From the NCBI RefSeq assembly GCF_900167395.1, contig NZ_FUWK01000028.1, positions 7,709-39,708 of the forward strand: a stretch of DNA of 32,000 nucleotides, given 5' to 3'. The DNA is from Nitrosomonas europaea (GTDB lineage Bacteria; Pseudomonadota; Gammaproteobacteria; Burkholderiales; Nitrosomonadaceae). Below, one piece after another: positions 421 through 20,612 of the stretch. The position numbers were made by a program, and so were the translations under genes. The notes under the pieces are model-generated. The model saw only the letters and a program-made list of their open reading frames with translations, was not told the origin of the DNA and did not search any database. Positions within the stretch are counted from its first letter, which is position 1, and each line of letters begins with the position of its first letter.

Positions 421-460
421 CGCCACGCTCTTTCATACCCTTTTCCATTCAGAATCATTC

Positions 461-482: not shown

Positions 483-545
483 CTGTCTCTCAACCTGAAT
501 TTCCATCAGCCCGCAAGGTAAGGCCGGTTTCTGTTACCTGCAATC

Positions 546-3050: not shown

Positions 3051-3213
3051 GAAAACTCCCTGTGTCCTGTCGATAAAAAATGTGCTTCTGTTATCCATGA
3101 CACACGAGTCGGAAAATCGGGTAGTTTTGACTGCAGAATTGTCAATGCGCTGCTCCGGTCACAGATTGCACATTGATGAAAACAGGGTGATGATGAGGTT
3201 TAAAGTTGCATGA

Positions 3214-3238
3214 TTCGCAAAAATGCTGCATTTGCGAA
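3214..3238. repeat. Perfect 8-bp inverted repeat TTCGCAAA-N9-TTTGCGAA in the receptor upstream region
   Basis: Read directly: 3214-3221 TTCGCAAA, 3231-3238 TTTGCGAA. It lies 164-188 nt upstream of the receptor start codon on the minus strand. Function (operator?) is unknown. Confidence 0.5.
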
Positions 3239-3324
3239 CCTGAAAAGGCGAAATGATCCAGCAAGCTTTGAAAGATTGTTTTTGCTGCCGTCAGAATCTG
3301 ACGAGAAATTTAAAAAATCTCTGA

Positions 3325-6300: not shown

Positions 6301-6792
6301 ATACAATCTGTCCGCATCCTCTGCCACTGATGACAAGGCGCCCTGCCGGGAACAGACCGGCATACGGTCGACCAGCCAGGCGCACAAGGAATCGATCGTC
6401 TGGATACGCAAACGTGACGGATTTTGCAGCAACTGCCAACCCCGCGCCTGATCATGCGCCAGTACCCGGTTTGCCAGCTCCCGTAACTGGCGCTGGTAAG
6501 CATCGTTCAGCAGTGCGGTTTCACTCTCCGCATCGCTATTTATATCACCAGCTGTATCGCGCAAAGCCTGCAGAATCCGATGCTTCATTTCACTGGCCGC
6601 CTTGCGCGTAAACGTAATGGCAACGATCTCCTCCGGTTCCTCTACCGTAGCAAGCAGCACCAGAAATCGCTGCGTCAGTAACCCTGTCTTGCCCGATCCA
6701 GCCGGCGCTTGAACGATGAAGGAATGCCACGGATCAAGCGCCTGCTGGCGTTCTCTCTGATCTGGAATCTCCTGTTGCAAGACTGTGTTCAT
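3325..6792 (-). CDS. AddA-like UvrD-family helicase with C-terminal PD-(D/E)XK nuclease domain
   Basis: 1155 aa. Walker A at the N-terminus (VQAPAGSGKTGLLTQRF). UvrD motifs (AITFTRKAASEM, LLVDEFQDTS, VGDPMQSIYRFRQA, LHKAKGLEFD, LLYVAVTRAK). C-terminal RecB-type nuclease motif (WIIDYKTG...QLDRYAQVL). Confidence 0.85.
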   Translation of the reverse strand: MNTVLQQEIPDQRERQQALDPWHSFIVQAPAGSGKTGLLTQRFLVLLATVEEPEEIVAITFTRKAASEMKHRILQALRDTAGDINSDAESETALLNDAYQRQLRELANRVLAHDQARGWQLLQNPSRLRIQTIDSLCAWLVDRMPVCSRQGALSSVAEDADRLYLEAARLTVEALEEEGEWTAAIEHLIGHLDNRLDRLQQLIADMLARRDLWLRGVVDAANSDDMRDRLESVLSGRIAEAIERLADAVPAGCQSEIIELMQFAAVNLSEAGSADSNTVRWPGNALEDRLVWESMADFLLTQTGDWRKQVTKANGFPAPSSVRDADVKEYLNGMKQRMSELLVALQSEETFRQQLQLLRQLPPERYTDEEWETLQALFSLLKVAAGYLLLVFRQHGQVDFTEIAMAAVRALGEPEMPTDLALALDYRIHHLLVDEFQDTSSSQAELLQRLTAGWQTGDGRTLFLVGDPMQSIYRFRQAEVGLFLDIRDSGYFGQIQMRFLRLSVNFRSQSGIVEWVNRYFPRILPDTDSVSTGAVSYASSVAFHAASSGEAVRIYPYLQKDDRAEAEQVGAIVAQARAAQPDGRIAVLVRNRSHLASIVVHLRRKGLRFQAVEIEQLAQRVVIRDLMALTRALVHPADRIAWLALLRAPFCGLSLQDLHTVANTLPQHVLIDSLRACAGSGVLSEEGGQRVNRVLPILERALMLYDRMSLRRCVEGIWVSLGGPASVQNETDLADAEVYFQLLENFDVTGYRPDIQELDERLVRLFALPDVAADDSLQLMTLHKAKGLEFDTVILPGLGKSPRRDQEKLLNWLEFHDQSQHPGLLCAPISAAGSDKNPISAYILSEEKKRTALEEARLLYVAVTRAKHNLHLLGHLRIDPDMQENDALKPPEDTLLARLWPAVAADFLARSREAAIGDLPASNVHTGLQLVGMVRLVSGWQPPPLPKAVAVAMHANEAGTTEEPVDFDWAGEPARLVGVVVHCLLHRIGLIGVENVDHQDLEALKLAGRSLLIQSGITPRHLEKAVQQVARALRTMCVEDETGRWILSNRHQEARCEWALSVPTAIAAGHSISVSIIDRTFVDAAGVRWIIDYKTGSHTGGSLEEFLDREQLRYRPQLDRYAQVLQRMEDRPMHLALYFPLLGKWRKWIPSRESA

Positions 6793-7006
6793 CGTTCTAG
6801 TCCAGGTACATTATTAGAAACCATCATTGCCAAAAGCTACTGAGCGGCCCGGGGCAGTTCACACAGCCTGAATATAAGATTCGATTTCTATTCAAAGATC
6901 GAATTTACTTGGTTATTAATAGACCAGGCTTTATATCCAATTGAGGATATACAAATGACAAACTCTTAATTAAAGCTACCCTGTAGATGCACCTATAGAA
7001 AGTGCT

Positions 7007-7030
7007 AAAACAAAAAACCTGGAAACCGGT
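7007..7030 (-). terminator. Weak intrinsic-terminator-like element downstream of the aminotransferase gene
   Basis: On the minus strand, ACCGG-TTT-CC(A)GGT forms a 5-bp stem with one bulge, followed directly by TTTTTGTTTT. It lies 45 nt after the stop at 7075. The stem is short, so confidence is low. Confidence 0.35.
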
Positions 7031-7074
7031 GGATACAATTGCGACGAAGACTATGACTTTTTCTCTTTGAGAGA

Positions 7075-8220
7075 TCAGCTAACAGCTTTACACAAAACCT
7101 CAACGACCCGGTCTTGCTGCTCTACTGATAAACCAACCCAGAGGGGTAACCGAACCAATCTCTCAGATTGTTGAGTAGTAATTTTCAGGTTGCCATGTAT
7201 ACGTCCGTACCGTAAACCAGCCGGGGAGGAATGAAGGGGCACATAATGGAACACAGACCAAATATCGTTTCTCTTAAATTCGTCAAGTACTTCTTGCCTA
7301 TCAATTTTTGATGCCAATAATACATAATACATGTGGGCATTATGCTGACACTCTTCCGGAACGATTGGACGACGCAGAATCTCTTTAGCTTCAAGTGGCC
7401 CAAGCAACTCATGATATCGTTGCCAGCTTGCCAGCCGCTCGTTAGTTATACGGTCTGCTTCTTCAAGCTGCGCCCACAGGAAGGCAGCGATCAGCTCACC
7501 CGGTAAGAATGACGAGCCCACCTCCTGCCAGGTGTACTTGTCCACTTCGCCCCTGAAGAACTGACTGCGATCGGTCCCTTTTTCGCGGATGATCTCTGCA
7601 CGAAGGCTCAGATCAGGTGTATTAACGAGTAGCGCACCGCCTTCTCCCGAGATCACATTTTTTGTTTCGTGGAAACTGTAGGCTCCAAGATCACCAATGC
7701 TGCCGAGGGCCCGCCCTTTGTAGGTTGACATCACCCCCTGCGCTGCATCCTCAACGACCTTCAATTCATGCTTCTGGGCGATGGCCATAATCGTATCCAT
7801 CTCGCACGCCACTCCCGCGTAATGCACGGGAGCAATGGCACGGGTACGCGGCGTAATGGCGGACTCAATCAGCCGTTCGTCCAAATTCAGAGTGTCTTCT
7901 CTGATATCGACAAACACAGGAACCCCACCACGTAGCACAAAGGCATTGGCGGTAGATACAAAGGTGTACGACGGCATGATGACCTCGTCACCGGGCTGAA
8001 TATCCAGCAATAAAGCAGCCATCTCGAGTGCCGCCGTGCAAGAGTGAGTAAGCAGACCCTTATTACATCCAGTCCGCTCCTCCAGCCATGCATGACAGCG
8101 CTTGGTGAAAGGCCCATCGCCTGCCAAGCTACCATTGAAGTGCGCTTCAGCGATGTAGTACAACTCCTTGCCTGTCATGTGAGGCCAGTTGAACGGGATG
8201 CGGTGATTTGTATTTTTCAC
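7075..8220 (-). CDS. wecE: dTDP-4-amino-4,6-dideoxygalactose transaminase (WecE/RffA, DegT/DnrJ/EryC1 family)
   Basis: Long near-identical blocks to E. coli WecE as I recall it. Examples: SCTAALEMAALLLDIQPGDEVIMPSYTFVSTANAFVLRG, PVHYAGVACEMDTIMA, VEDAAQGVMSTYKGRALG, SFHETKN, EIIREKGTDRSQFFRGEVDKYTW. The start overlaps the upstream stop by 4 nt. Confidence 0.9.
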   Translation of the reverse strand: MKNTNHRIPFNWPHMTGKELYYIAEAHFNGSLAGDGPFTKRCHAWLEERTGCNKGLLTHSCTAALEMAALLLDIQPGDEVIMPSYTFVSTANAFVLRGGVPVFVDIREDTLNLDERLIESAITPRTRAIAPVHYAGVACEMDTIMAIAQKHELKVVEDAAQGVMSTYKGRALGSIGDLGAYSFHETKNVISGEGGALLVNTPDLSLRAEIIREKGTDRSQFFRGEVDKYTWQEVGSSFLPGELIAAFLWAQLEEADRITNERLASWQRYHELLGPLEAKEILRRPIVPEECQHNAHMYYVLLASKIDRQEVLDEFKRNDIWSVFHYVPLHSSPAGLRYGRIHGNLKITTQQSERLVRLPLWVGLSVEQQDRVVEVLCKAVS

Positions 8221-10466
8221 ACTCTCTCCAAAACCCTGCGTCGAAACGTTTGCGAAAACTTAAAAATAATCAGAACAAACAAGAAAATCCAGAAAACATG
8301 TGCAATCCAGGCGTAGCGGGCAAGAGGCTTGAATTCGAGACGTACTCGGCGAGTTTCTTGAGGCACTAACACGCCCTGAAACACTCCATTGACCTCCACA
8401 GTCTGCGCGGCCTGCCAACCCTGATTGGTTTCTGCAAGTGCCTCCCAGTCGCGATGAAACTTCTGACTCAATAAAAAAACAGATGGTGCGGAGGAATTTA
8501 CCTCAAACTCTAATACATCACCCTGATCCAAAATCTTGACGGGTGTGTTCGTAACCATACCTCGCGGGTCATCGAGCACAAGTTTTGTCGAGCTCATATC
8601 AAGCTGCGGGGGGGTTACTTGCATGCTGTCGCCCATCCGTGAAACCACCCGGTAAAGGTGGATACCCGATTCCTCACTCAAAAACTCCAAATTTTCATGC
8701 GCCAGCTTGCCCGACGAGAGGATCAGGCTGATATTGCTCATCCAAAACATTGTGCCGGCATAGTCTGGGTCGATGGCTCCATTCCAGCGACCATATGTCT
8801 GCACTTCCCCACCAAGCGCCTTGATCAAGGTGTGGTATCGGGTGGAAGAGAGGCTGTTATAGCTATGCACAGAAGACAGATCGAGTGTGGCGTTAAGGTT
8901 CGGCGGCAACACTGAAATCCCTGGGGCTGCAACAGCATAACGACTGCCAGCCGGCAGATTTTCCCTAACCTTCTCAACCAGAGGCGAGGTCATCGCTATC
9001 TGCGCCGGATCTTGCTTAAGCATCAGCGGATAAGAGGTCATACCCAGAACCAACACAAGAGCCATCATCAAAAATAACGGACGGTATCGATCGTATTGCG
9101 CGATTAGTAGCCCAGTCACCAGCAGCATTCCGATGACAATCTCCCAATGAATCGAAATATGCTGCGAAACACCGTATGCAACACCAATCGCAATCACTAC
9201 CAGCGCAACTGCCGCTCCAGCAAATACGGCGCTCGAAAATTGACGGTGATGCGTGCGCCTGGCAAGAGCATCAATACCGAACGCAGTGATAATGGTAAGA
9301 GGAAGTGTGATACTCCCCAGTGGCGTGCTTCGCGAAAGATTGAACCCAAAGTATTTAACACCCAACACATAGAGTGGATGTACGAAGGCAAGCAGGCAAA
9401 ATATAAGAATCGCCAGCCACCACCCCCAGGTTTCCTTGAATGAAGTGACTAACGCCACGACTCCAAAGAAAATAGCGATCAACGTTACGCTCAAACCGTC
9501 GTAAGAAAATGGGAAAGATGGCGCGATCGGATTGCCAAAAATTTCAGGGATTGTACTCAGTACAAAAAAGCGAACCAGCTCAGTAAAGCTGGCGAACTTT
9601 GGAAGCACCATCGTGAAAAACGAGGGATCGGGTGCAACTCGTGCAGACTCGGACGAGAGAATGAACAGATCTCGATAAACAGGAAAAGCGAGCGCGGCTC
9701 CAACAACCAGAGCAGATAAAGCAAGAGTAAGGAATTTGGCAAGTTCAAGTCGGCTGACGCGTGCCTGATGGTATGCCAACCAGAGACCATAGCCACCCAG
9801 CAGGTAGGCATGAAAGACAACCGGCTGCGGGTACGCAGTCATCAGTAGACTGTAACCGCTGAAAGCCAACACGCCCCAGCCCAAAATATCCGGGCGTTTC
9901 GCCAAACGAGTAACAGCCCACAATGCCCCCGCTGCCCAGCACCACACGGCCGGGAACATGGGAAAGGTCAGCCAGTACATGAACAACGGAGATGTCGCCA
10001 ATCCTAGTCCTGCAATCAAGCCAGCTATAGGACTTAAGCCAACTTCCCTGGTAAACAACAAGACAAATAAACCGGCAAGGAAACAGAAACCTAATGACAA
10101 CGTGGTGATGAAGCGCCAAGGGCCATCAACCAATCTGGTAATCACCCAAGACGGCAGATAGGCTGAACTAAAGCCTGAAATTTGATAGAGCGGCCGCCCA
10201 AGCTCTGTATTATTTGACCAGAGAGGTAACCAACCAGATCGGGCCATCGTTAGATGCTCTGTTATTTCTGGGATATACGCATTTGTGAAGTCACTAAACT
10301 TTCTGTTCTCAATGAGGGAGCTATCTAAGTTTACAAGCTCAACGTGACCAACCTCTATCTCCTGCCGGTGTGGTGCTACAACGTAAGAAAAAAAACCCGA
10401 AAACAGTACAGCAGCTACTGCAATGTAATAGATCAACACATGCTTGTAGGAGGAAAATGGAAGCAT
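8217..10466 (-). CDS. Large polytopic membrane protein with a roughly 270-aa C-terminal extracytoplasmic domain. By architecture it is a GT-C-type (YfhO/ArnT-like) glycosyltransferase candidate.
   Basis: A dozen or more hydrophobic helices span the first ~490 aa, followed by a soluble tail. It sits in an operon with GtrA-like and GtrB/ArnC-like genes. I chose the ATG at 10466 (MLPFSSYKH...) because the track start (10514) overlaps the upstream methyltransferase by 41 nt. No family-level motif could be verified by eye. Confidence 0.55.
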   Translation of the reverse strand: MLPFSSYKHVLIYYIAVAAVLFSGFFSYVVAPHRQEIEVGHVELVNLDSSLIENRKFSDFTNAYIPEITEHLTMARSGWLPLWSNNTELGRPLYQISGFSSAYLPSWVITRLVDGPWRFITTLSLGFCFLAGLFVLLFTREVGLSPIAGLIAGLGLATSPLFMYWLTFPMFPAVWCWAAGALWAVTRLAKRPDILGWGVLAFSGYSLLMTAYPQPVVFHAYLLGGYGLWLAYHQARVSRLELAKFLTLALSALVVGAALAFPVYRDLFILSSESARVAPDPSFFTMVLPKFASFTELVRFFVLSTIPEIFGNPIAPSFPFSYDGLSVTLIAIFFGVVALVTSFKETWGWWLAILIFCLLAFVHPLYVLGVKYFGFNLSRSTPLGSITLPLTIITAFGIDALARRTHHRQFSSAVFAGAAVALVVIAIGVAYGVSQHISIHWEIVIGMLLVTGLLIAQYDRYRPLFLMMALVLVLGMTSYPLMLKQDPAQIAMTSPLVEKVRENLPAGSRYAVAAPGISVLPPNLNATLDLSSVHSYNSLSSTRYHTLIKALGGEVQTYGRWNGAIDPDYAGTMFWMSNISLILSSGKLAHENLEFLSEESGIHLYRVVSRMGDSMQVTPPQLDMSSTKLVLDDPRGMVTNTPVKILDQGDVLEFEVNSSAPSVFLLSQKFHRDWEALAETNQGWQAAQTVEVNGVFQGVLVPQETRRVRLEFKPLARYAWIAHVFWIFLFVLIIFKFSQTFRRRVLERV

Positions 10467-10473
10467 GTGAATG

Positions 10474-11349
10474 CTAAGCCGATTGTTTTTTTGCCACAAC
10501 CAGCCTGGATCCACCGACGGGATAATTCATCCCAAGCCTAATCCCTGCAAGCTCTAACATCATTAAACCGTAAAAAACCTTATTCAAAGCTGCGTTGATT
10601 TTAAGTTCGCCGGCAGGATCGAAATCTTTTGTTTTTCGCTTCTGCAAGACTCGTGAAAGCATCATTACTGGCAAAAGGCTCGTTACAAAAGAACTGCTCC
10701 TTAAAAGCTCAAAACCGGCGGTCAAAACCTTCTGCTCGATCTCGACACGCGTGTATCGGCGCACATGGCAGGCATAGTCGTCAGAAGCGCTCCACAACCG
10801 GGGATGCTGAGGAACGGTTAGCAGCAAAACACCACTAGGCTTAATGGCGTTATGAAGTTGAGCCAGGACAGTTTCATCTTCTTCGATGTGTTCCAGCACA
10901 TCAAAGGCGCCAATGGCATCAAACTCTTCCACAAAAGGCACCCGACGAGCATCCATCTGCATGAAATGTGTGGAGGGAACGCGTTTAGCCGCATGAAATA
11001 AGCCAGCCAAAAAAATCTCACTGCCATTTAATGCTATTTCAGGGCAGGCACGAGCGATACCCGACAGAACAAAGCCAGTACCACAACCCACCTCCAAAAA
11101 TGCGCCAGCGTTTGGCTTGTAGGTGCGCAGCGCCCAGAGAATAAGCTCGTTACGCGCCCGAAACCAGAAATTACCCGCCTCTAATCTGGATAGCTCTGAG
11201 AAGTATTCAGGCTTAAAACCTCCGCCACCATGTGCAAACTCAGAGGCATGAGCCTCTATTCCGTTCAAGCGTTCTGGCTGATAACCGCATGAAGGACAGG
11301 CCCAATCGGCAGAAGAGAAGAAATTTTCGCACTGAAGACAAACTTTCAT
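10474..11349 (-). CDS. Class I SAM-dependent methyltransferase with N-terminal zinc ribbon
   Basis: CxxC...CPxC at the N-terminus (MKVCLQCENFFSSADWACPSCGY). SAM motif I (FLEVGCGTGFVL) and post-I/II motifs (FDAIGAFDVLEHI). Confidence 0.85.
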   Translation of the reverse strand: MKVCLQCENFFSSADWACPSCGYQPERLNGIEAHASEFAHGGGGFKPEYFSELSRLEAGNFWFRARNELILWALRTYKPNAGAFLEVGCGTGFVLSGIARACPEIALNGSEIFLAGLFHAAKRVPSTHFMQMDARRVPFVEEFDAIGAFDVLEHIEEDETVLAQLHNAIKPSGVLLLTVPQHPRLWSASDDYACHVRRYTRVEIEQKVLTAGFELLRSSSFVTSLLPVMMLSRVLQKRKTKDFDPAGELKINAALNKVFYGLMMLELAGIRLGMNYPVGGSRLVVAKKQSA

Positions 11350-11780
11350 GAGGGAACTCCTTCGGATTCTGCCGCACTCTGCGCAAATACAAAAAACCGC
11401 GACATAACAAACAGAAAGATGGCCACCACGATGATTGCTATCGCCTGTACGATTTGATGCGGAAAACCTAACCAGTCCACAAACAACAGCAGCAAAACTA
11501 AATTCAGCAGATAGCCTGCAACTTGCGCCAGCAGGTAACGGACACCGGTAACGCCAATATGTCCGTCATGTCGAAAAGTATAACGTCGATTGGCGAAAAA
11601 CCCAATTGATGCCCCTACGAAGTACAGAGCCGTCATCGTTATCTTGGGAGCGTCCCATAAATAGGTCAGGAGGAGGTAAAAGGCATAACCTAAAACATTT
11701 GTCAGAATGCCAATCAATGCATAGCTAAACAATTGCCGAAATGTTTTTCGAATGGACAAGATTCCAGAATCAGCATTCAT
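11346..11780 (-). CDS. GtrA-family small membrane protein (putative polyprenyl-phosphate-sugar translocase)
   Basis: 144 aa with four hydrophobic helices. The N-terminal FRQLFSYALIGILTNVLGYAFYLLL pattern and a central NRRYTF loop are typical of GtrA-like proteins. ATGA-type 4-nt overlaps on both sides. Confidence 0.8.
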   Translation of the reverse strand: MNADSGILSIRKTFRQLFSYALIGILTNVLGYAFYLLLTYLWDAPKITMTALYFVGASIGFFANRRYTFRHDGHIGVTGVRYLLAQVAGYLLNLVLLLLFVDWLGFPHQIVQAIAIIVVAIFLFVMSRFFVFAQSAAESEGVPS

Positions 11781-12562
11781 TTTTCTTCTCTAAGATTTAA
11801 GCTGATATATATTTTTTGTCCTGATTCGTCATCTATAACGTATGCATTTTTTGAGTCTTCAAAAAATGCCAGTCCGCGAAGAAGATTAAAAAATTCTACC
11901 CCCTGATAACTCTTGTTAAGATCTATCAGGCAGGTTTTTTCAAACTTTTCCCTGGAATAATAGTCGCCCCTTGCCCCCTTCTTTTTTTGCGTATCCCTAA
12001 GACGGCTACCCAAGTCATAGGTCAGAAGTCGCTCTATTAATTCGTCAAAATGATGGCAAACTATATCATCGAGCCTTGACTGCAATGTTCTAGCCGTGTC
12101 GCTTAGATGTACAGGAACTTCAACTTGCATGAAAATTTCACCATCATCAATTTCTTCGTTGACGAAGTGGTAGGTGAACCCTGTTCTACGCTCTCCATTG
12201 ATGATGGCCCAGTTCACGGGATAAACACCACGATATGACGGGAGTAGGCTGTAATGGAGATTTAACACGCCCTGCTTTGGAAGGCTAATTAAATCAATGG
12301 GAATGATATGCTTCCAGCTCAAAAGCAAAAACCAATCAGCCTGCCGAATCAAACGATCAACCGAGAAAGGCGCCTCATACACAAGCAGAGGGATATTTGC
12401 CTTCATACATATCTCGCGTACACCAGGCCACCATGCTTTTCCATTTTCGCGAGTCGTGACAACAACTGGAATTTCAAAGCGACTGGCATCAGAGTGCGTA
12501 ACAAGCTTTTGAAGAAGCCTATAGCCTATCTCATGATCGACGAAAGGGACTATGCGTTGCAT
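11777..12562 (-). CDS. Sugar N-formyltransferase (Fmt/ArnA-N-terminal-domain family)
   Basis: Formyltransferase core LNLHYSLLPSYRGVYPVNWAIINGERRTGFTYHFVNEEIDDGEI matches the H-x-SLLP-x-x-RG motif and the catalytic Asp region. Size and context match nucleotide-amino-sugar formyltransferases (WbtJ/WbkC/VioF/ArnA-N type). Confidence 0.8.
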   Translation of the reverse strand: MQRIVPFVDHEIGYRLLQKLVTHSDASRFEIPVVVTTRENGKAWWPGVREICMKANIPLLVYEAPFSVDRLIRQADWFLLLSWKHIIPIDLISLPKQGVLNLHYSLLPSYRGVYPVNWAIINGERRTGFTYHFVNEEIDDGEIFMQVEVPVHLSDTARTLQSRLDDIVCHHFDELIERLLTYDLGSRLRDTQKKKGARGDYYSREKFEKTCLIDLNKSYQGVEFFNLLRGLAFFEDSKNAYVIDDESGQKIYISLNLREEK

Positions 12563-12565
12563 CGT

Positions 12566-13204
12566 TCACGCCTTCCTTATCAGAATTGTGAACTCATAAA
12601 GCCCATAGTCATGAAGTAACGCGACTTGGCGGGAATAGCGGCGCTTGCATAAATCAAACAATCGACACGGGTCAGCATAATAGAGATAGTCGCGCTTTTT
12701 GTCCTCGTCGGAGTAAGAAGTCAGGCAGTTGAAAGCGAATCCAAGACTGCTGGTTCGGTTCAGTACGTCCAATGTACCCAGCAGATAGTCAAACCACTCA
12801 GCATCCGTTCGCTCCAGACGCACATTGAAAATGCCGCTGGCGACACCATAGTCCGCCACTTGGTCTGGTTCAGTTGAGGTGATAAAGCGAGCTTGATTGG
12901 CGGCAGTGTGTCGCTGCCTGGCAGCTTTGATCATTTCGTGGGAAACATCCACCCCGAGGTATATACAGGCTGCATACTTGTCTCGCAGATAGTCCAGCAA
13001 TGCGCCATAGCCACAACCCAGGTCGTTCAAGGAAAAACCAGGCATCTTCTTCGGGTCAATCACTTTACAGAGCTGCTCAAATCGAATCGTTTGGCTTTCT
13101 TCACCATTCCAGTCGACCCCGCGAGGCGTATCACCATGTTCCGCAAGTTTTTCAGCGTAATACGTTGCAACTTCGTCGAGCAGCTTAGTCTTGTTGTTTT
13201 GCAT
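12566..13204 (-). CDS. Class I SAM-dependent methyltransferase
   Basis: Motif I LNDLGCGYGALLDYL, followed by LGVDVSHEMIKAA. 212 aa. Overlaps the upstream GT2 gene by 20 nt. Confidence 0.8.
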   Translation of the reverse strand: MQNNKTKLLDEVATYYAEKLAEHGDTPRGVDWNGEESQTIRFEQLCKVIDPKKMPGFSLNDLGCGYGALLDYLRDKYAACIYLGVDVSHEMIKAARQRHTAANQARFITSTEPDQVADYGVASGIFNVRLERTDAEWFDYLLGTLDVLNRTSSLGFAFNCLTSYSDEDKKRDYLYYADPCRLFDLCKRRYSRQVALLHDYGLYEFTILIRKA

Positions 13205-14114
13205 AAATCTGCCTCACGATGGTATAGGGGCGCTGCTTGGTTTCCGAGAATATCTTGGATAAGTAGATGCCCACCACACCAATGAAAGAGATAATCATCC
13301 CACCAAGAAGCCAAATAGAAGCCATTACGGATGTCCATCCGGCTAAAGGTTTTGCCAAGAAAAGCCAGTGAGTAACCAGATAAGCGATATAAGCCAAAGC
13401 AAACAACGAGATCGATATACCGATATAAAAAATGCTGACCAGTGGGGTGTTACTGAATGATGTCACCGAGTTGACCAGCAAGGACATTTTTCTGCGGAAG
13501 GTGTATGTGGTCTCGCTAGTATTGTGCTTTTTGATGACATAAGGGCGCTGGTCAAACCCGGTGATGTACCACAAGCCCGCCATAAAAACTTCCCGCTCTT
13601 CATGGCGCAGCAAAGCATTAACGTACCGACGAGTCATCAGGCGCGCGGTGACAACATTTTCCGGCAATGCAAGACCCGTCAGTGCTTTGAAAAAGCGATA
13701 GAACCACTGTCCACTCCAGCGCTCAAACCAGCTCCCTTTTCTGCGTTCCTGAATTCCGTACACCACATCACAACTCTCCTGCTCCATCTGCTGCACGAAT
13801 GTCTCTAGCCATTCAGGCTCCTCCTCCAGGTCGCTATCAATCAAAAAAACTCGCTCCCCCTTTGCGTGCGCCAAGCCAGTCATCATCGCCTTGTGGTGTC
13901 CAAAATTACGCGACAAATCAACAACAACAACGTGCGAATCCTGCTCCGTGAGTTTGACGGCCAGATCCAAGCTGTTGTCTGGTGATCCGTCGTTTACAAG
14001 AACTATTTCGTAATCGTCCCCAACCAGCCGCCTTGCCGTGGCACTCGCACGCTCGTGAAATTCATTGATGTAGGGCGCAGACTGATAAAGAGTTGCGACG
14101 ATCGAGAGCTTCAT
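13185..14114 (-). CDS. Family 2 glycosyltransferase with two C-terminal TM helices (ArnC/GtrB/CsbB-like polyprenyl-phosphate glycosyltransferase)
   Basis: GT-A signature MKLSIVATLYQSAPYI...EIVLVNDGSPDNS...LSRNFGHHKAMMTGLAHAKGERVFLIDSDLEE (DxD-type). Two C-terminal membrane helices (LVSIFYIGISISLFALAYIAYLV; VMASIWLLGGMIISFIGVVGIYL). This is the architecture of Und-P sugar synthases. Confidence 0.85.
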   Translation of the reverse strand: MKLSIVATLYQSAPYINEFHERASATARRLVGDDYEIVLVNDGSPDNSLDLAVKLTEQDSHVVVVDLSRNFGHHKAMMTGLAHAKGERVFLIDSDLEEEPEWLETFVQQMEQESCDVVYGIQERRKGSWFERWSGQWFYRFFKALTGLALPENVVTARLMTRRYVNALLRHEEREVFMAGLWYITGFDQRPYVIKKHNTSETTYTFRRKMSLLVNSVTSFSNTPLVSIFYIGISISLFALAYIAYLVTHWLFLAKPLAGWTSVMASIWLLGGMIISFIGVVGIYLSKIFSETKQRPYTIVRQIYAKQQD

Positions 14115-14236
14115 TTGAACAGTTGATCAAGGTTGAATGGGATATGTACTGCCAACAACCACCAAAAGGTGTGCTCAATCAACACAATCCCTTACGATTG
14201 GTTAGTTCGCCAGTAACCAGGCTGTGCAAGATCTTG

Positions 14237-14569
14237 TCATGGGTCAGTTTGCGCGTTGCAAGTGAGCGCACTTGCAGCAATGATGGCATCTGGCAGCTTT
14301 ACGCGGTGGCTACGACGCAAACCAATAACCATATCTTCAATCTCTTTGGTCAGGGGCAGATACTGGAGGCAGGCCAGTTTTCCACTAATCAGAATTTCTT
14401 CTTCCGCAGTCAATCCCGGAAAGCCCAGTAACTCCATACGAGTGATTGCGCTATAGCCGCAACGCCGGGTATCAATCTGCTGATTACTGATCATGGACAA
14501 TGTTTCAGGATTGGATTTCAATAGCCCAAGAATAAAGTTGGTATCAAGCAGCCAGTCAATCCCATTCAC
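14237..14569 (-). CDS. vapC: PIN-domain toxin (VapC family), possibly C-terminally truncated
   Basis: WLLDTNFILGLL (first acidic PIN residue), TRMELLGF and LPDAIIAASAL motifs. GTG start at 14569 with AGGAGG 9 nt upstream; it overlaps the antitoxin stop by 14 nt. Only 110 aa, see findings. Confidence 0.75.
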   Translation of the reverse strand: MNGIDWLLDTNFILGLLKSNPETLSMISNQQIDTRRCGYSAITRMELLGFPGLTAEEEILISGKLACLQYLPLTKEIEDMVIGLRRSHRVKLPDAIIAASALTCNAQTDP

Positions 14570-14777
14570 GGCGCAGTGCCTCCTGTACTGCCAACGGTTC
14601 CCCGGCAAAGCAGGCTGAATGTTCCAGCCCACCGGCCATATCAATCAGCCGGAAAGGCTCATCTGGTTGCGGAAGCATGTTCTTCTGGTGTAGAAATTCG
14701 GCAAAATCCAGCAACTCTGCCAGAGCAGCAGGTGGTAGCGTACTACTGAGTTTGTAAAGCCGTTCGATTGTTGACAT
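14556..14777 (-). CDS. Type II antitoxin (DUF2281/VapB-like)
   Basis: MSTIERLYKLSSTLPPAALAELLDFAEFLHQK is the DUF2281-type N-terminus. The C-terminal ...FAGEPLAVQEALRREWD is typical of partners of PIN toxins. I prefer the ATG at 14777 because AGAGGA lies 6 nt upstream; the track start at 14795 is TTG. Confidence 0.7.
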   Translation of the reverse strand: MSTIERLYKLSSTLPPAALAELLDFAEFLHQKNMLPQPDEPFRLIDMAGGLEHSACFAGEPLAVQEALRREWD

Positions 14778-14854
14778 TGTCATTCCTCTTTCCAACGTAT
14801 CGTATCGATTATCCGATCAAATTTCCTGCTCGTCATATCGAAATGATCGTGAGA

Positions 14855-15547
14855 TTATTCCACATACTTCATATAACGCTTCGCGTTCTTCCCGCAATTG
14901 AGCAACAAATCAAGAATGGTAACGCCATGTGTGAATTCCCCCCAGAGTTGCTGATATTCCGGATACCCGATGTAATCAAACCAGGTGAGTTTGATGCCAT
15001 TCTCTTTAAAAACCTGCTCATCCACGTAATCTTTTGCCGCCGGGCCTGAGATGTACTCAGTGCCACCAGCCTGCACACAAAGGTCAGCAAGGCGTTCGGT
15101 CTTGCCATCGAGCAGGGTGTAATCCCATGAATTTTTAATTACCGTCTTGATCCCCAGGTAGTTACAGATAGCTTCAATAAATCTCCTGTTCAATTGTGAA
15201 ATATGGGTGAAGGTCTCTGCGAGATAGAGTGGCTCCAGCCATGCAGCAATCTCAGTAAAATGCGGTGAACGACGATAGTTCTGCACCAAGGCTTTCCAAT
15301 GCGCAGCTGCCCAATCAGTACCGTCGATTTCGGTCTCGCGAATCTTTTGATGGTATTTACCCTTCACCAGAACCGGAACCGTGAGCCACTGAACACCTTG
15401 AGGTGTTTTGATCTGATTACGATTTCGCCAATCGCGGCGCGTATATTGCATATCATCGTAGAGGATGAACTCATCTACGGCAGCAATCATATCGAAGTAA
15501 CCCTTCCACGGTATGTAGTTGGATTGCACGATGGCGACTTTTTTCAT
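14855..15547 (-). CDS. WbqC-family protein (polysaccharide-cluster protein of unknown biochemical role)
   Basis: N-terminus [47 protein letters not shown] matches the WbqC-like family pattern (Q-x-x-YLPW-x-GYFD...). The start overlaps the upstream stop (ATGA). Confidence 0.7.
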
Positions 15548-17127
15548 TGTCCTGCGTTTCTCGTTTTATAGATTTGATACGCTGGATTATGTGAATTTGG
15601 CACCAATTCAAAATTGTTCAGGATAAATTGGTAAATTAACGGATGTGTATTTTTAAAACGCAGCTCGTCACGACCATCAAGAGGCAGATCAAAAATAAAC
15701 GCAAAACCAGGGTCAGATGCCTTGATGCGTTCGATCTCTTTTTTCTCGAATGCTCCTGTGCGGGGAAATAATGCATAAATCTCCCACATGGGCGACCTTC
15801 GCTCCAGCAAAGCATAAGCACCAGGCCAAAAGGGTGTGGCAATAAAAGACCGTCCATCTGGAGCGAACTGATCAGTCAATTGATGGAGCAATGCAATGTC
15901 ACTCGCCGTATTTGGATCGACCTGGAGATACTTGCCAGATATATCCACATTGACGCACTGTTTGCTTGCCAGGCATTGCCACCCAGGGTGAAACACATGC
16001 ATCACCCAGAAGCTTGTCATAAATAGACCAGCAGCAAGAACCCACTTTGTTTTGCTGGACGCACTTGACGCTATGGCCAGAATCCCGATCAAAAGTGGGA
16101 ATATACCTTGAGCAAGGTGCCCAACGTCAGCGCGAGAAAACGCGTAATGCGCATAAGGAAGCGCGAGAAATGCTGATGCGACCAACACTGGCGGTAAGGG
16201 CTTTTCCTTCAATCCTCGATAAACGACCCATATAACTGAAAGCCCCCCAAAGATTAGGGTTCCAATAAAGAAAATACCGATCAATACACCCCGCGCAGCA
16301 TCACCGATAGAAGAGGCAGCAAAGTTGATTGTCCACGGCCAGGGCACGGGTAGTGGCAAATTAGTGGCTTTTTGTTCAAACAAAAATCGCACACTTTCCC
16401 AGAATGCAACTGCAAAACCTGGAATCAGGAGCGCCATGAAAATAATAGGGAGAAAGCCGATCGTAACCCCTACACTCCAAAGTACAAACCCTTTCAAAAA
16501 TCCGGTATCAGAACGGTTCCTGATATTGAGCCAAGCGATAACACCAAGGCTACCTACAGCACCGTAAACGCCATGATTACGACCAAAAACAGCAATCAAT
16601 CCGACACAGATGCCAGCAATAAGATAGCGTTTGGGAATGGGGTTTGAAACAAGATAAGTCAGAATTCCGATCAGAAATATAGAGATGGAAATATCGAAAA
16701 GCTTGTGGCGTGGAAACATCCATAACACCAGTATCGCTGCAGAGATTATCCAGAAGAGAATATCAGCTTTATCTCTGCTCTTTGTCGACTGCGCAATCAA
16801 CAACAAACCAACGAATAAGCCGAGGCACTGGAAAACAGCCACTGCTATACGGACACTCATAATACCGTTGTCACCAGCAACACTCAGTAGTGCTGCAACC
16901 CAGTAATAACGACCGGGATCATAGGACATAAAATCACGAATCGGGATTTCACCCAGCAAAACTCGCTGGACGCCGTACCACAGATAGCCTTCATCCCACA
17001 AGTTAAAGCCCTTGTTACCCTGCCAAATAAACAGTAAAAAGATGACAAGGCATGAAATCGTCAGAATCTGGATTAGTCTATATTTATTGTTTTGTATTTC
17101 TGGCTCATCCATATACGCATCCGGCAC
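15544..17127 (-). CDS. Polytopic membrane protein, GT-C-type (ArnT/PMT-like) glycosyltransferase candidate
   Basis: 527 aa with about 12 hydrophobic helices. An acidic DE motif sits in the first predicted external loop ([35 protein letters not shown]), resembling the loop-1 DE/DxD of GT-C enzymes. The C-terminal ~140 aa are soluble. Assignment is by architecture and context only. Confidence 0.5.
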
Positions 17128-17256
17128 TAAAATGCCATTGTAATCTACAGCAAAGAGAGCGTCACCTTCTCACGGATTGTTGCGAATGGCATCAGCACGT
17201 TGCACTGGCCATCCACCAGGGTCCATAGACAAGAACAAGTAATAGCACTGCAAATA

Positions 17257-19986
17257 TCAACAATCATCCACAGCTTCCAGCGATTCACCGATTCTGCACA
17301 GAGGTTTGAGCTCGCAGTAAGTGCAGGTTTGCGGGTATTGTTTAGGGCTCACTCTGGCTTCTCCGGCCATAAAATCCTGCACCAGTTGCTCGATCGTCTG
17401 GCGCCAGCCGGCCAATACTTCATCCCAGCTTGCTGCTTCCCGGGTATGTCTCAGGTTTTCGAAAGATTTTATTCCCAGGATCGATACTTCTTCGCTTGCT
17501 ACACCCTCAAACGCAATATCACCTGCTCTGATGCGGGCAAATGCAATCCCGGCCAGCCCGTCATCAGTAAATGCCAGACTGTATAGCGGCAATTGCGGTT
17601 CATCGGGGCGATCGCCAAACCACGCACTTGCTTTGACTTCACCGGTTTTGTAGTCGATGAGCAGTTCACCCCCTTCTTCCAGCGTATCGATGCGGTCTAT
17701 CCTCAAATTGATGCGCAGGCCGTTCAGTTCAAGCTCCGTTTCCATTTCCCGGCCTGAAACACGGAAAGGGGGGCGCTGCTTTTCCATTTCCAGCCACGCC
17801 AGCACGAGAGCATGCAATCGTTTGCTTTCAAGTGCTTGCAGACGCTCACCAAAAGTGTGCGGATAGCGCGGAGCGATTTCGTATATCGCTTCATTCACCT
17901 TGCCGGCGACCAGTGCATTCAGCTCACCAGGGGACAAATTTGCCAGTGCTGCTAACGAATCCAGTTCAGCCCAGACCATTTCCATGACCCGGTGCAGCAA
18001 AGTGCCGCGTACCAGCGCATTCAGACCGATCTGTATGCGGCCCAGTGGACGGGCGACCAGCCGCAGTTCGGCAAATGCCCGGAACGGGCAGGCTGCCTGT
18101 AACTTGAACAGCTTGCTGCCGCCCGGAATACCCGTTCCGACAAATGTCGGGGCAACATCCTCGGACAGCACCTCCTGTTGTCGACTGTGATACACGCTGT
18201 CTCGCCAGGCGGATTGCGTACCCATGGCGAGCATTTCTTCACTCAACGCCGGGAAAGCATCGATCAGTGGACTGGAATCGAGGATTTCATCGCCCTTACG
18301 CTGCGGATAGCTGATGACAACCTCAGTAGCATTCGTGGTAATTCGCTGCAACAGCGCTGCTGCCACACGTAATTCACGCCTGGCGCTGGAATGCGGCGCA
18401 TCAACCTCACGCTGCAAGGTCAGAGGAAGAAACGGATTGGGCCGGGATGATGCGGGAAATACGCCGTCATGCAATCCCATGATCCAGAGATAGTCGAACT
18501 GCAGCCCGCTGGTTTCAAACAACCCCAATACCTGCACAGGCGCCTCCGCTGATTCCGGCTGAAAAATCGTACCGGCAACCATGTGCCTGAGTTGCTGCAG
18601 CGCTTCAGTCAAACTGACCGACCGAATTACCCAGTCCAGCGTGGAAAATTCTCTCAGTACCCCCTGCCATGCCTGGATAACCTGATATTCCTCGCTGGAC
18701 AATCCTCGCTCACCTGGCCAGCCGATTGCTTTCAGCCACTGTCCGAATCGCTGCGCCCACTCTCCCGGGCTCGTTGGCGCAAGTGATACTTTCACCTGCT
18801 TCATCAAATTACTCAGACATTCGGCCAGCAGTGGACACGAATAGGGCTGGCCACTGCGAGCCGCATTCGTCAGCAGCTTTTGCAGGGTCAGATTCCATTC
18901 ACCCGATTCGCGCAGACGAGCATCCAGCAAGGCGCGCGCATTCATTTCCCGATCCCCGCCCGCAATGAAAGAAGAACGCAGCACACGACTGACATGCGGC
19001 AACTCGATGACAGTTTCTGATAAACCGAGAACATCCAGCGCCAGACTGACGGGTGGATAGCGGTCGAGCGGCTTGCCAAGCGACAAATTGTAAGAACGCA
19101 CCCGATCATGATGCTCCGGCTGCAATGCTTGTGGAATCAGCACTTCATCCAGTGTCTGGCAGATCATTTCCCGCTGTGCGGCCAGTTCCGGCACGACCAG
19201 CGCAATCCTCGCCGCCGGATTTTCCTCCAAACGTTGCCGTATCCAGCGCGCCGCCTGCCGGATCTCGTCACGACCGTCTGCGCACGCCAGCTTGCCGATA
19301 CGATCCGGCTGACCGGATAACTGTAACCACTGCAATGAGCATCCCGTCTGTTCGAATGCACGCAGAAACGATGATTGCTGCGGTGTCCACTCATCGAAAC
19401 CGGTCAACACAAGCTCGTTCGGCACTGACAGGCTGTCGATCTGCACGTATTTCTGCAATATTCCGGGCAGAACGGCGACTGAAAGCCAGCTATTTTTCCG
19501 GCATTTCGCTTCGAACATCGAGGCCAGTTGCCAGAACAACCGGGTATCGGCGTTATGACCGAAATCCGCTTCCCGGCAGGGAATACACCATGCATGCAGT
19601 GTCTGCCATGCTTCCATGATACGAGCGACAGTCTCGTTGGTGGCCTGTAACGGAACATCGCCGGACTGTTCTGCCAGAATTTCCTGCCAGACGAAATACT
19701 CCTGATGGGAAGTCAGTAACACCCCCGGGGCCGATTCAATCCGGCTGGAAATGACCACCTCCTGCCACAGCTGCTGCAACCATGCATCCCAGGGCAGAAT
19801 ATCCGGTGCGGGCCATGCCCCGTGTCCTTCCGCAGACCTGGCCTGATTGAATGCCTGATGAAGGGCACGCGCCAGCCGCCGGTTTCCGGTCACAATCGTT
19901 GCACAGCCATCCAGTCTTTGGATAAGATCGGTGATGTTAGTCTGTCGGGCGTCGAACGGGCGGGTCGTCATGGCCGGATTTTCCAT
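17257..19986 (-). CDS. AddB-like PD-(D/E)XK nuclease with C-terminal Fe-S cysteine cluster (partner of the AddA-like helicase)
   Basis: Nuclease motif LLIDYKTGE...PQLPLYSL. One upstream Cys (AACPFRAFAE) plus C-terminal CTYCELKPLC matches the AddB-type 4-Cys staple arrangement. No Walker A. The start is uncertain: TTG 19995, ATG 19986 or ATG 19971. Confidence 0.8.
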   Translation of the reverse strand: MENPAMTTRPFDARQTNITDLIQRLDGCATIVTGNRRLARALHQAFNQARSAEGHGAWPAPDILPWDAWLQQLWQEVVISSRIESAPGVLLTSHQEYFVWQEILAEQSGDVPLQATNETVARIMEAWQTLHAWCIPCREADFGHNADTRLFWQLASMFEAKCRKNSWLSVAVLPGILQKYVQIDSLSVPNELVLTGFDEWTPQQSSFLRAFEQTGCSLQWLQLSGQPDRIGKLACADGRDEIRQAARWIRQRLEENPAARIALVVPELAAQREMICQTLDEVLIPQALQPEHHDRVRSYNLSLGKPLDRYPPVSLALDVLGLSETVIELPHVSRVLRSSFIAGGDREMNARALLDARLRESGEWNLTLQKLLTNAARSGQPYSCPLLAECLSNLMKQVKVSLAPTSPGEWAQRFGQWLKAIGWPGERGLSSEEYQVIQAWQGVLREFSTLDWVIRSVSLTEALQQLRHMVAGTIFQPESAEAPVQVLGLFETSGLQFDYLWIMGLHDGVFPASSRPNPFLPLTLQREVDAPHSSARRELRVAAALLQRITTNATEVVISYPQRKGDEILDSSPLIDAFPALSEEMLAMGTQSAWRDSVYHSRQQEVLSEDVAPTFVGTGIPGGSKLFKLQAACPFRAFAELRLVARPLGRIQIGLNALVRGTLLHRVMEMVWAELDSLAALANLSPGELNALVAGKVNEAIYEIAPRYPHTFGERLQALESKRLHALVLAWLEMEKQRPPFRVSGREMETELELNGLRINLRIDRIDTLEEGGELLIDYKTGEVKASAWFGDRPDEPQLPLYSLAFTDDGLAGIAFARIRAGDIAFEGVASEEVSILGIKSFENLRHTREAASWDEVLAGWRQTIEQLVQDFMAGEARVSPKQYPQTCTYCELKPLCRIGESLEAVDDC

Positions 19987-20072
19987 GTTTCGCAAACAGT
20001 CTGATAATCAATGCTGTACGCAGGCAGAGTAATACAATTCAATTTTTGAAACAGTTTTTATCAGGAGAACCA

Positions 20073-20612
20073 ATGAACAGAATAGGAAACGGGCTGCTGG
20101 TCGCCATGGCGATCACCTGGTCCGGTATGGTTTTTTCAGCAGTGCAAAACTTGCCTCAACCGGTTTTCTCAGGCCAGGATGGTGAACAGGCAGCAGCCGA
20201 CAATGCAGCATCACCTGCTCCCGCGGAACAAGCCGCACCGGCCTCGACAGAAGCAGAAACTGCAGCGAAGGCAGAAGAACAGGCACTGCCCAGCGGCATC
20301 GGCTGGAAACTGGTACGCAGCCTCGAAATGGGAGACTCGGGCAAGTTTGTGCACATGGTACTGATCGAAAAAGGACGCCAGGCGGATAAAACCATCTACA
20401 GCTCCGCCATTCACAGATTATGTGCCAAGGAAAAAGAATTTTGCCGGATACGTTTCTGGGTTCAGTCATACCTCATACCGGAAAAAGTCTCACTCACACT
20501 GGAACAGCAAAAAACCCAGCAGGCAGATCACCTGTTCAATCGCGCTGCCGGTATCCACCGAACGTTATGGGCCTGCACCGTCGATTCGACGAGTGAATCG
20601 TGCATTCAATAA
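20073..20612 (+). CDS. Secreted hypothetical protein (signal peptide, Ala/Glu/Gln-rich linker, Cys-containing C-terminal domain)
   Basis: ATG at 20073 preceded by AGGAG 6 nt upstream. MNRIGNGLLVAMAITWSGMVFSA looks like a signal peptide. A low-complexity AAADNAASPAPAEQAAPASTEAETAAKAEEQA linker follows. The C-terminal ~110 aa contain 4 Cys. No family recognised. Confidence 0.6.
   Translation: MNRIGNGLLVAMAITWSGMVFSAVQNLPQPVFSGQDGEQAAADNAASPAPAEQAAPASTEAETAAKAEEQALPSGIGWKLVRSLEMGDSGKFVHMVLIEKGRQADKTIYSSAIHRLCAKEKEFCRIRFWVQSYLIPEKVSLTLEQQKTQQADHLFNRAAGIHRTLWACTVDSTSESCIQ

Follow-up and report, generated by a model that had tools for sequence, protein, structure and literature searches.

In the present study, we analysed a stretch of 32,000 nucleotides of Nitrosomonas europaea DNA (hereafter the window; RefSeq assembly GCF_900167395.1, contig NZ_FUWK01000028.1, positions 7,709 to 39,708 of the forward strand), in which the genes of the AddAB helicase-nuclease, addB and addA, do not lie side by side. 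According to the map of open reading frames (ORFs) and the Pfam scans, they are separated by 10.4 kb with twelve genes, all on the minus strand. The original prediction, made from the letters alone, had described this same layout, with addB and addA on one strand in B-then-A order and about 10.4 kb of glycan genes between them, and had read the intervening block (hereafter the island) as an insertion. In the order of transcription, addB is followed by U527, a WbqC-family gene, a DUF2281 antitoxin, a PIN toxin, a GT2 glycosyltransferase, a methyltransferase, a sugar N-formyltransferase, a GtrA-family gene, a second methyltransferase, U765, a DegT-family aminotransferase and a 282-bp spacer, after which comes addA. 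The features are as follows, with protein lengths in amino acids (aa).

17257-19986, minus strand: addB, AddB-type PD-(D/E)XK nuclease subunit, 909 aa (PDDEXK_1, E = 3e-26)
17113-17265, minus strand: left end of the island, with the new addB stop and the leader before the first island gene
15544-17127, minus strand: U527, polytopic membrane protein (gene callers start it at 17112, 522 aa)
14855-15547, minus strand: WbqC-family protein, 230 aa (PF08889, E = 7e-85)
14115-14856, minus strand: secondary insertion with a toxin-antitoxin (TA) pair; cassette homology breaks at 14857 and resumes at 14114
14556-14777, minus strand: DUF2281 antitoxin (E = 9e-15)
14237-14569, minus strand: PIN toxin (PIN, E = 2e-8), apparently C-terminally shortened
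13185-14114, minus strand: predicted GtrB/ArnC-like GT2 polyprenyl-phosphate glycosyltransferase, 309 aa (Pfam Glycos_transf_2)
12566-13204, minus strand: S-adenosylmethionine-dependent methyltransferase, 212 aa (Pfam Methyltransf_25/12/11)
11777-12562, minus strand: sugar N-formyltransferase, 261 aa (Formyl_trans_N and N_formyltrans_C)
11346-11780, minus strand: GtrA-family small membrane protein, putative lipid-linked-sugar flippase (GtrA_DPMS_TM, E = 1e-18)
10474-11349, minus strand: second methyltransferase, 291 aa (Pfam Methyltransf_23/11/25)
8217-10514, minus strand: U765, large polytopic membrane protein (gene callers start it at 10466, 749 aa)
7075-8220, minus strand: WecE/VioA-type dTDP-4-keto-6-deoxyglucose 4-aminotransferase, 381 aa
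6847-7074, minus strand: right end of the island, AT-rich non-coding spacer, common to variant v2 (L094), with a T-tract at 7007-7017
6793-6846, minus strand: ancestral remnant, comprising the addB stop region and the addB-addA intergenic sequence; aligns with L082, L081 and L095
3325-6792, minus strand: addA, 1155 aa (UvrD-helicase, E = 2e-42; UvrD_C, E = 3e-30; PDDEXK_1, E = 2e-6)

The composition of the island differs from that of its flanks in both G+C content and tetranucleotide usage. Computed in full, the G+C content is 47.7% in the island against 55.5% in addA and 55.9% in addB, in agreement with the contrast that the original prediction had drawn from spot counts of single lines. The tetranucleotide correlation with the housekeeping core is 0.32-0.65 within the island and 0.86-0.93 in the flanks, the latter values being partly circular as the core itself included addA and addB. 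The 282 bp before addA (6793-7074) are non-coding and AT-rich as proposed, with 38.3% G+C. The island is compositionally foreign.

The addB-addA site in related species and strains

A synteny scan with an AddB-homolog profile, covering one genome per species, returned 80 loci, onto which AddA and the proteins of the block were mapped. Both genes were visible in 78 of them, with a projected addB-addA gap of 3 bp at the median and of at most 150 bp in 76, and none of the block genes was present in any of the 80 loci. A wider gap was seen only in the nearest relatives that bear a name: N. halophila (426 bp by ORF coordinates), whose AddB is ~56-57% identical to that of the window organism, and Nitrosomonas sp. 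ANs5 (255 bp). Their gaps correspond to long non-coding spacers, 12749-13174 in L001 (N. halophila) and 12752-13006 in L002 (ANs5), in which no ORF exceeds ~57 aa. Among metagenomic relatives, L082 (88% AddB identity) and L081 (83%) carry the two genes 40-50 bp apart, and in L098 (72%) the genes overlap by 4 bp, with lpxK coming directly after addA in all three. The pair is thus normally adjacent, as had been supposed, and this adjacency is the ancestral state. Because the gap is so short at the median of the 78 loci and because close relatives have the genes adjacent or overlapping, the reading of the block as an insertion is supported; it is also in keeping with the foreign composition described above and the foreign-like cargo described below.

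A layout of this kind could also be produced by an assembly artefact, that is, by the chimeric joining of unrelated regions, and one related assembly, L091, does break inside the island, its contig ending after it has reached the first island gene. Nevertheless, the left junction is identical in at least seven independent assemblies (L083-L087, L091 and L094) obtained from different sequencing runs, and L094 crosses the whole island from addB into addA. Since independent contigs carry the same junction, a chimera is ruled out, and we hold an artefact to be exceedingly improbable.

At the left end, homology with the empty-site relatives stops at 17269-17266, the GAT codon at 17266 being the last common codon, and the final codons of AddB (…VDDC*) are completed by the island, which contributes 'D C stop' after this GAT. 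The leader that runs from the junction to U527 measures 129 bp to the ORF start or 144 bp to the called start. By blastn against L082 and L081, homology is lost at 17269 and is back at 6808, and alignment extends the right-hand ancestral homology to ~6846, the old stop-codon region and intergenic sequence having been retained: 6793-6846 matches the 40-50-bp intergenic sequence of L082 and L081 as well as the stretch after a duplicate of the addB 3' end in L095. A faint likeness of 6850-6900 to the addB 3' end was also seen; it is not used as evidence here, and a clear duplicate occurs in L095 only.

Contigs whose addB and addA are 97-99% identical to the window at the nucleotide (nt) level fall into three variants of the island, and the sequences that cluster with AddB and U527 of the window bear the names Nitrosomonas europaea or Nitrosomonas sp. 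PRO5. The formyltransferase is present in v1, to which the window and L083-L087 belong, as does L091 over the length of its contig. The second variant, v2 (L094), is collinear with the window at 93-95% nt identity except for 11781-12571, which is replaced by a hexapeptide acetyltransferase and an uncharacterised 302-aa protein. In v3 (L095/L096), addB and about two-thirds of U527 are kept and the cargo is otherwise different: a transketolase gene that is split, a fusion of epimerase and GT2 (epimerase::GT2), a pair of methyltransferases and GtrA, then a U748 homolog (82% nt identity), an 89-aa DegT remnant and the TA pair. A fourth lineage, v4 (L097, AddB 88% identical), has other cargo again, with a 296-aa protein and an FkbM-type methyltransferase; its AddB ends in 'AAVDDV*', it has the same left junction as the window, and its homology to the window continues past that junction to 17241, so that the first ~25 nt of the island are in common. 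On these comparisons, the site is a strain-polymorphic island locus with at least three cassettes in the N. europaea lineage and a fourth lineage sharing the left junction. Since v4 has the left end of the island and the 'AAVDDV*' tail in common with it, the evidence points to one founding insertion whose contents were exchanged afterwards. The original prediction of an insertion in this genome is amended on this point: the block is an insertion, and it is not a single frozen event.

Even within v1 some variation was observed. L084 matches the window at 100% in most island proteins, but over 7259-10514 the identity is 97.3% for U765 and 94.4% for the aminotransferase, a hint that the right-hand end of the island recombined recently.

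The predicted glycan-modification system

The two large membrane proteins at either end of the gene block, U527 and U765, match no family of Pfam, NCBIfam or PHROG and have no sequence match in the PDB. Their AlphaFold models, built from 22-sequence alignments, have a predicted local distance difference test (pLDDT) score of 74.4 for U527 and 70.5 for U765, and their best Foldseek matches in the PDB are uniformly of the GT-C class. For U527, this holds for the top 13 matches (E = 2e-4 to 9e-2), among them STT3, AglB, PglB, ALG12/9 and Emb; for U765, it holds for the top 22 (E = 1e-3 to 5e-2, TM-score 0.24-0.36), among them STT3, AftD, EmbB, ArnT (5f15), PglB, AglB and Pmt4. GT-C enzymes bear a catalytic acid in the first loop after transmembrane helix 1 (TM1), and both proteins have invariant acidic residues there, U527 within an invariant WDE motif after TM1 (W44 D45 E46) and U765 at D75 in the first loop after TM1. 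U765 is further predicted to carry a C-terminal beta-rich domain and a final transmembrane helix. Both proteins are therefore presented here as predicted GT-C-like folds. The possibility that they are paralogs was tried and rejected (hhalign probability 0.4%, no detectable relation).

The remaining enzymes are more readily classified. The WecE/VioA-type aminotransferase scores above the curated family cut-offs (TIGR02379, 700.7 bits against 434.85; NF008687, 630.9 against 375) and reaches 513 bits with E. coli WecE (PDB 4piw). The N-formyltransferase has the ArnA N-domain as its top PDB relative, with 6nbp, VioF, Rv3404c and other sugar N-formyltransferases also among its relatives, and behaves as a swappable module: in v2 and in several other taxa, a hexapeptide acetyltransferase and a ~300-aa protein stand in its place. 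The GT2 matches the PHROG family 'GtrB-like O-antigen conversion' over its full length (216 bits) and the NCBIfam models PgfS (188 bits) and ArnC (136 bits), both under cut-off, and a hydrophobic C-terminal tail is visible in its sequence. The first methyltransferase is 76-86% identical to those in the WbqC-type cassettes of other taxa, and the second has N-terminal Cys-rich CxxC pairs which look zinc-ribbon-like by eye only. The WbqC-family protein, 84-89% identical in L088, L089, L090 and L092 and also present in v1 and v2, has no sequence relative in the PDB and receives only incidental mentions in the literature that we searched.

Taken together, these assignments suggest a pathway. The aminotransferase would convert dTDP-4-keto-6-deoxyglucose, supplied by RmlA and RmlB encoded elsewhere in the genome, to a dTDP-4-amino-4,6-dideoxyhexose (Fuc4N or Qui4N), and the N-formyltransferase would then formylate the amino sugar, the acetyltransferase presumably performing the step so placed in the sister variants. 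The GtrB/ArnC-like GT2 would load the sugar on undecaprenyl phosphate, GtrA would help it across the inner membrane, and the two GT-C-fold proteins would pass it to a periplasmic acceptor. Our best guess for this acceptor is the O-antigen or core of lipopolysaccharide (LPS), because of the similarity to GtrB, the phage context of related genes and the strain-level polymorphism. The benefit is likely to be cell-surface variation, for example against phages.

This scheme follows the three-component paradigm of periplasmic glycosylation that has been described (PMC11127046). By family evidence, the GT2 synthase and the GtrA-family protein both match the Gtr type, and like the GtrA/GtrB/GtrC systems of Shigella and Salmonella, which are often phage-borne, the island has a GtrB-like GT2, GtrA and one or more predicted GT-C-like transferases, is a mobile and strain-variable accessory cassette, and has a family member at a phage moron position (L100, see below). 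Unlike Gtr systems, it brings along its own genes for tailoring the nucleotide sugar (a 4-aminotransferase, either an N-formyl- or an N-acetyltransferase, a pair of methyltransferases, and WbqC), its donor is predicted to be not glucose but an N-acylated 4-amino-4,6-dideoxyhexose, and its GT-C-like proteins are two, unrelated and outside the Pfam, NCBIfam and PHROG families, instead of one.

A comparison with the Arn system (PmrHFIJKLM, L-Ara4N) raises a different interpretation, namely that the island encodes an Arn-like lipid A system whose cationic amino sugar would protect the cell against metals or cationic peptides. Indeed, the two would have C4 transamination, N-formylation, a GT2 acting on undecaprenyl phosphate, flipping and periplasmic GT-C transfer in common; an aminotransferase, an N-formyltransferase, a formyl-sugar-type GT2, a flippase-like protein and predicted GT-C enzymes are found together here, and the ArnA N-domain and ArnT figure among the structural relatives given above. 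Yet the aminotransferase is of the WecE type, acting on a dTDP-6-deoxyhexose, and not ArnB, and the equivalog scores lie far under their cut-offs (ArnB, 198.7 against 631; ArnA, 97.6 against 777, for its N-domain only; ArnC, 135.6 against 529). The island has no ArnA decarboxylase domain, and no ORF in it matched an ArnD-type deformylase or polysaccharide-deacetylase family in Pfam or NCBIfam. Because deformylase and decarboxylase are both absent, the sugar would remain N-acylated and uncharged. In the sister variants, moreover, one finds an acetyltransferase or a sugar module of quite another kind. We therefore consider an Arn-like function unlikely, and prefer the Gtr-type decoration of surface glycans.

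Two further comparisons are instructive. Polymorphic O-antigen and capsule loci lie between conserved flanks, e.g., galF-gnd in the Enterobacteriaceae, and the present site likewise holds alternative glycan gene sets at one position, with near-identical flanks and internal conserved 'handles', a configuration that fits replacement by homologous recombination. It differs in lying inside a DNA-repair gene pair, in being empty in a sister species, and in being small and encoding a modification system rather than a full polymer pathway. In Gram-positive bacteria, CsbB/GtcA/YfhO glycosylates lipoteichoic acid (PMC7389260, PMC5836110). With that system the island shares a GT2, a GtrA-family protein and a large membrane protein of predicted GT-C-like fold; on the other side, U765 matches no Pfam family, the YfhO family included, the host is Gram-negative and the donor sugar is a different one. 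The N-terminal multi-helix membrane bundle and final C-terminal transmembrane helix of U765 do look similar to the topology of YfhO. In sum, the island is of a familiar kind, a genomic island with a Gtr/Arn-like modification system. Its unusual traits are the site within the addBA pair, a long host-gene duplication in place of an attachment (att) site, the self-contained amino-sugar module and, as far as models can tell, two unclassified GT-C-like families in a cross-phylum cassette.

Relatives of the cargo and arrival of the island

U765 and U527 have homologs of unusually high identity among alpha-, beta- and gammaproteobacteria as well as Desulfobacterota. Compared with a metagenome-assembled genome of Desulfobulbus (L088), protein identity is 91% for the GT2, 92% for DegT, 88% for WbqC, 82% for U765 and 70% for U527, with nt identity of 83-85% over most common segments and 72% over the U527-WbqC segment; the U765 homolog of Allohahella is 71% identical. 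The conserved unit can be written as U520 – WbqC – GT2 – methyltransferase – [variable N-acyl module] – [GtrA/EamA-like] – [methyltransferase] – U750 – DegT, an EamA-like small protein taking the place of GtrA in some cassettes. Its surroundings vary: the Desulfobulbus cassette (L088) lies between phage baseplate/lysozyme genes and a large serine recombinase, that of L089 between rve transposase genes, that of Allohahella (L090) beside an rve remnant and Wzm/Wzt, and an acetyl-type cassette in Nitrosomonas sp. GH22 (L092) at a different locus, beside a FimL/ChpA-like gene. U527-family genes were also found on five IMG/VR viral contigs. One of these, L100 (2343-11575; IMG/VR UViG 2671180069_000001), carries at its contig end a U527-family gene (59% identical) directly after genes for an endolysin, an internal virion protein, an acetyltransferase and a virion structural protein, which suggests a moron-like position typical of phage seroconversion. 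No relatives of U765 were found in IMG/VR.

Two of these cassettes show signs of decay or rearrangement. Three short ORFs (231, 180 and 94 aa) occupy the U750 position in L092 (6117-7737), which suggests that U750 has been pseudogenised there. In Allohahella sp. A8 (L090, 1414-2740), an inverted partial second aminotransferase (88% identical) and a methyltransferase remnant adjoin the rve fragment upstream of the intact cassette, as if an earlier rearrangement of the cassette had left a scar there.

The TA pair, which the original prediction had counted among the signs of insertion, has a history of its own. The module is real, with the antitoxin overlapping the PIN toxin by 14 nt in a VapBC-like arrangement as read from the sequence. 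Because WbqC and GT2 overlap by 4 bp wherever the pair is absent (L088, L089, L090 and L092), it is a later insertion within the cassette and weak evidence for the origin of the block; in v3, the same pair lies at the right end of the island. The PIN toxin matches profile positions 2-104 of 120, stopping ~16 positions early. The +1 frame continues the homology ('LTHDKIL…'), and the frame-repaired protein scores 42.8 bits instead of 35.2 and reaches position 115. The same shortening is found in other island variants, so that an intact antitoxin may be paired with an inactive toxin.

A direct clue to the mode of arrival comes from v3. In L095, a 180-bp direct duplicate of the addB 3' end (21189-21366), 91-92% identical to the functional copy, sits directly upstream of the ancestral intergenic region and addA, and encodes '…CRIGESLEAAVDTEQ*', an ancestral-type tail as in L082. 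In an alignment of 162 columns, L082 alone differs at 16, the right copy alone at 11 and the functional (left) copy alone at 1, and these counts argue that the lineage's own addB sequence was duplicated and that the right copy is decaying. Since a 'homology – island – homology' layout is the product of single-crossover integration, we tentatively propose, as the likeliest origin, that a circular molecule integrated in the Campbell manner. The island would have entered by a single crossover that duplicated the addB 3' end, without integrase or transposase; v1 and v2 would since have lost the right-hand addB copy, except for its last 6 nt ahead of the old stop; and the contents would then have been swapped by homologous recombination across conserved flanks, with addB and the first GT-C gene on the left and the second GT-C gene, the aminotransferase and addA on the right.

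The island might instead be the remnant of an element that was mobilised by an integrase or transposase, inserted site-specifically and later lost its mobility genes. The phage, serine recombinase and rve transposase neighbours of the cassettes in L088 and L089 and the U527 homolog on viral contigs would be in line with this idea, and integrative elements typically enter a gene at its 3' end and supply it with a new stop codon. On the other hand, Pfam scans of the ORFs between addB and addA revealed no integrase, transposase or recombinase, whether as a gene or as a fragment; the window junctions show no target-site duplication, inverted repeats or short att-like repeats; the sole flanking repeat is 180 bp of a host gene, far above the typical length of an att core; and the U765 family is absent from IMG/VR. 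Such a mobilised origin therefore seems rather improbable to us, and single-crossover entry remains the reading that we favour.

It is also conceivable that the block is ancestral at this site and that relatives with adjacent addB and addA have lost it. The direct repeats of L095 would permit precise excision, and with the window, L097 and L082 equidistant in AddB, a loss specifically in L082 can be imagined. Against this stand the adjacency in 76 of the 78 loci of other species and in L081 and L098, which lie outside the clade that bears the island, the foreign composition of the island, and a cargo much closer to the cassettes of other phyla than the host's housekeeping genes are to those of its congeners. 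Furthermore, the piece of addB on the right is a duplicate in decay, and beside addA the old intergenic sequence persists. As a statement on the deep ancestor, this reading is refuted, and overall we give it very little credence. The relationships used here were taken from pairwise AddB identities and the common junction, as the bootstrap neighbour-joining consensus had an implausible rooting and came without support values.

We conclude that the block is, very probably, a horizontally acquired, strain-variable genomic island, most plausibly glycan-decorating, which settled in the last addB codons of an ancestor of the N. europaea lineage and split a contiguous addB-addA pair; atypical composition and patchy presence among relatives, two usual marks of genomic islands, are both found here. 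Several points weigh against this conclusion or parts of it. AddB identity is 0.88 for each pair among the window, L097 and L082 (a trichotomy), and the empty site of L082 could be a secondary loss via repeat recombination rather than primitive; adjacency is ancestral whichever holds, because the deeper outgroups are adjacent. The 180-bp duplicate is present in v3 only and could represent a later rearrangement rather than the founding event. No direct or inverted repeats spanning the junctions were found in the window (search over 6600-17500), where only short chance matches appeared, so that the junction repeats sought on the original prediction's suggestion are missing. As for function, the GT-C assignment rests on medium-confidence models with pLDDT of 70-74, weak Foldseek E values of 1e-4 to 5e-2 and TM-scores of 0.24-0.45, and neither U765 nor U527 resembles any solved structure at the sequence level; rmlA and rmlB are not within the window; and promoter-like matches across the region are no commoner than in shuffled sequence.

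The surroundings of the locus contain further variable elements. Between addA and lpxK, a second insertion relative to close relatives (421-3324) holds a FecA-like TonB-dependent receptor gene (546-3098, minus strand; STN, Plug and barrel domains), and the homology of L094 runs to 3071, just within the 5' end of this gene, where its contig ends. On the other side, ~8.5 kb past addB and beyond conserved housekeeping genes, a tyrosine recombinase gene (28501-29472, minus strand, 323 aa; Phage_int_SAM_4 and Phage_integrase) lies just beyond metW in a stretch of low G+C content, about 45-48%; this could be another mobile or integron-like region. A group II intron (30091-31892, minus strand) is also present, with a reverse transcriptase/maturase ORF (30091-31404; RVT_1 and GIIM) and Rfam group-II D1-D4 matches at 31491-31575 and 31724-31892, in a stretch of 64% G+C. 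Between holB and addB, an ORF of 179-188 aa (20046-20612, plus strand) runs antisense to the genes around it; it was called in L081, L082, L083, L091, L095, L097 and L098 and has no Pfam family. The region upstream of holB varies as well (L083 1-7594, L081 1-7985): the window, L091 and L095 have tmk there, L083, whose addB is 99% identical, has a 1757-aa DEAD/MZB helicase and an SNF2 helicase, and L081 has a type I restriction-modification system with AAA_15 and Fic-like genes. This suggests a defence-island hotspot adjoining the addBA locus.

Integrity of AddAB and implications

Both genes of the split pair are intact and under purifying selection. The AddB residues C636/C891/C894/C900, D767, D781 and K783, invariant across 20 homologs, are present in the window, the conserved cysteines that flank the nuclease domain being the Fe-S cluster ligands of characterised AddB. 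The ratios of nonsynonymous to synonymous substitution rates (dN/dS) against L082 and L081 are 0.16-0.18 for addB and 0.15-0.16 for addA, equal to the value between L082 and L081 themselves and to that of neighbouring holB. The new junction seems to have cost AddB nothing conserved, because the tail beyond '…CRIGESLE' varies among relatives anyway. AddA and AddB thus probably remain functional. In Helicobacter pylori, addA and addB are unlinked (HP1553 and HP0275), so a separation as such is compatible with AddAB function. The pair in the window is likewise not adjacent, with the difference that the H. pylori genes are far apart and those of the window lie 10.4 kb from each other, co-oriented and possibly still co-transcribed. 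Our literature search found no paper on a split addBA in Nitrosomonas.

The original prediction held that the block ends in a hairpin plus T-tract (7007-7030) and that, if the block is an insertion, addA expression has been uncoupled from addB. The T-tract is there (7007-7017); the hairpin, with a 3-bp stem, did not hold up. As a terminator, 7007-7030 was rejected, with a minimum free energy of -3 kcal/mol (z = +0.89) and 159 of 200 shuffles folding at least as well, and a terminator scan gave no call at this place. Folding of the entire spacer was no better than that of shuffles (z = -1.2), and Rfam gave no RNA family in the island or the spacer. In the spacer, no coding-strand match of 9/12 or better was found for an addA promoter, and a promoter-like match at 17165-17137, near the left junction, was no better than chance. 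Since the island genes are all co-oriented and no credible terminator was found, read-through from addB via the island into addA is possible. What has been lost, in any case, is the adjacency, any translational coupling, and the 4-bp overlap of L098-type ancestors.

It is tempting to go further, and to imagine the addB 3' tail in the N. europaea lineage as a standing cassette-exchange site for surface-glycan diversification under phage pressure on ammonia oxidisers, with U527 and U765 founding new GT-C families that add N-formyl or N-acetyl 4-amino-4,6-dideoxyhexoses, delivered through a self-contained undecaprenyl-phosphate pathway, to LPS, and with the cassette moved between phyla (Nitrosomonas, Hydrogenophaga, Allohahella, Labrenzia, Desulfobulbus) partly by temperate phages. 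We regard this broader picture as possible rather than probable.

The insertion event in itself is ordinary genome plasticity. For AddAB, it offers a natural case in which a near-universal adjacency has been broken and the broken state persists without sign of relaxed selection, and the split pair can show whether co-transcription or co-translation of AddA and AddB matters. For glycobiology, it brings to attention a widespread, highly mobile and uncharacterised cassette that joins amino-sugar synthesis and N-acylation to Gtr-type delivery. For ammonia oxidisers, it reveals a strain-variable surface-glycan locus in a model nitrifier lineage, one that could plausibly help to determine how susceptible strains are to phages and how they turn over in wastewater systems.

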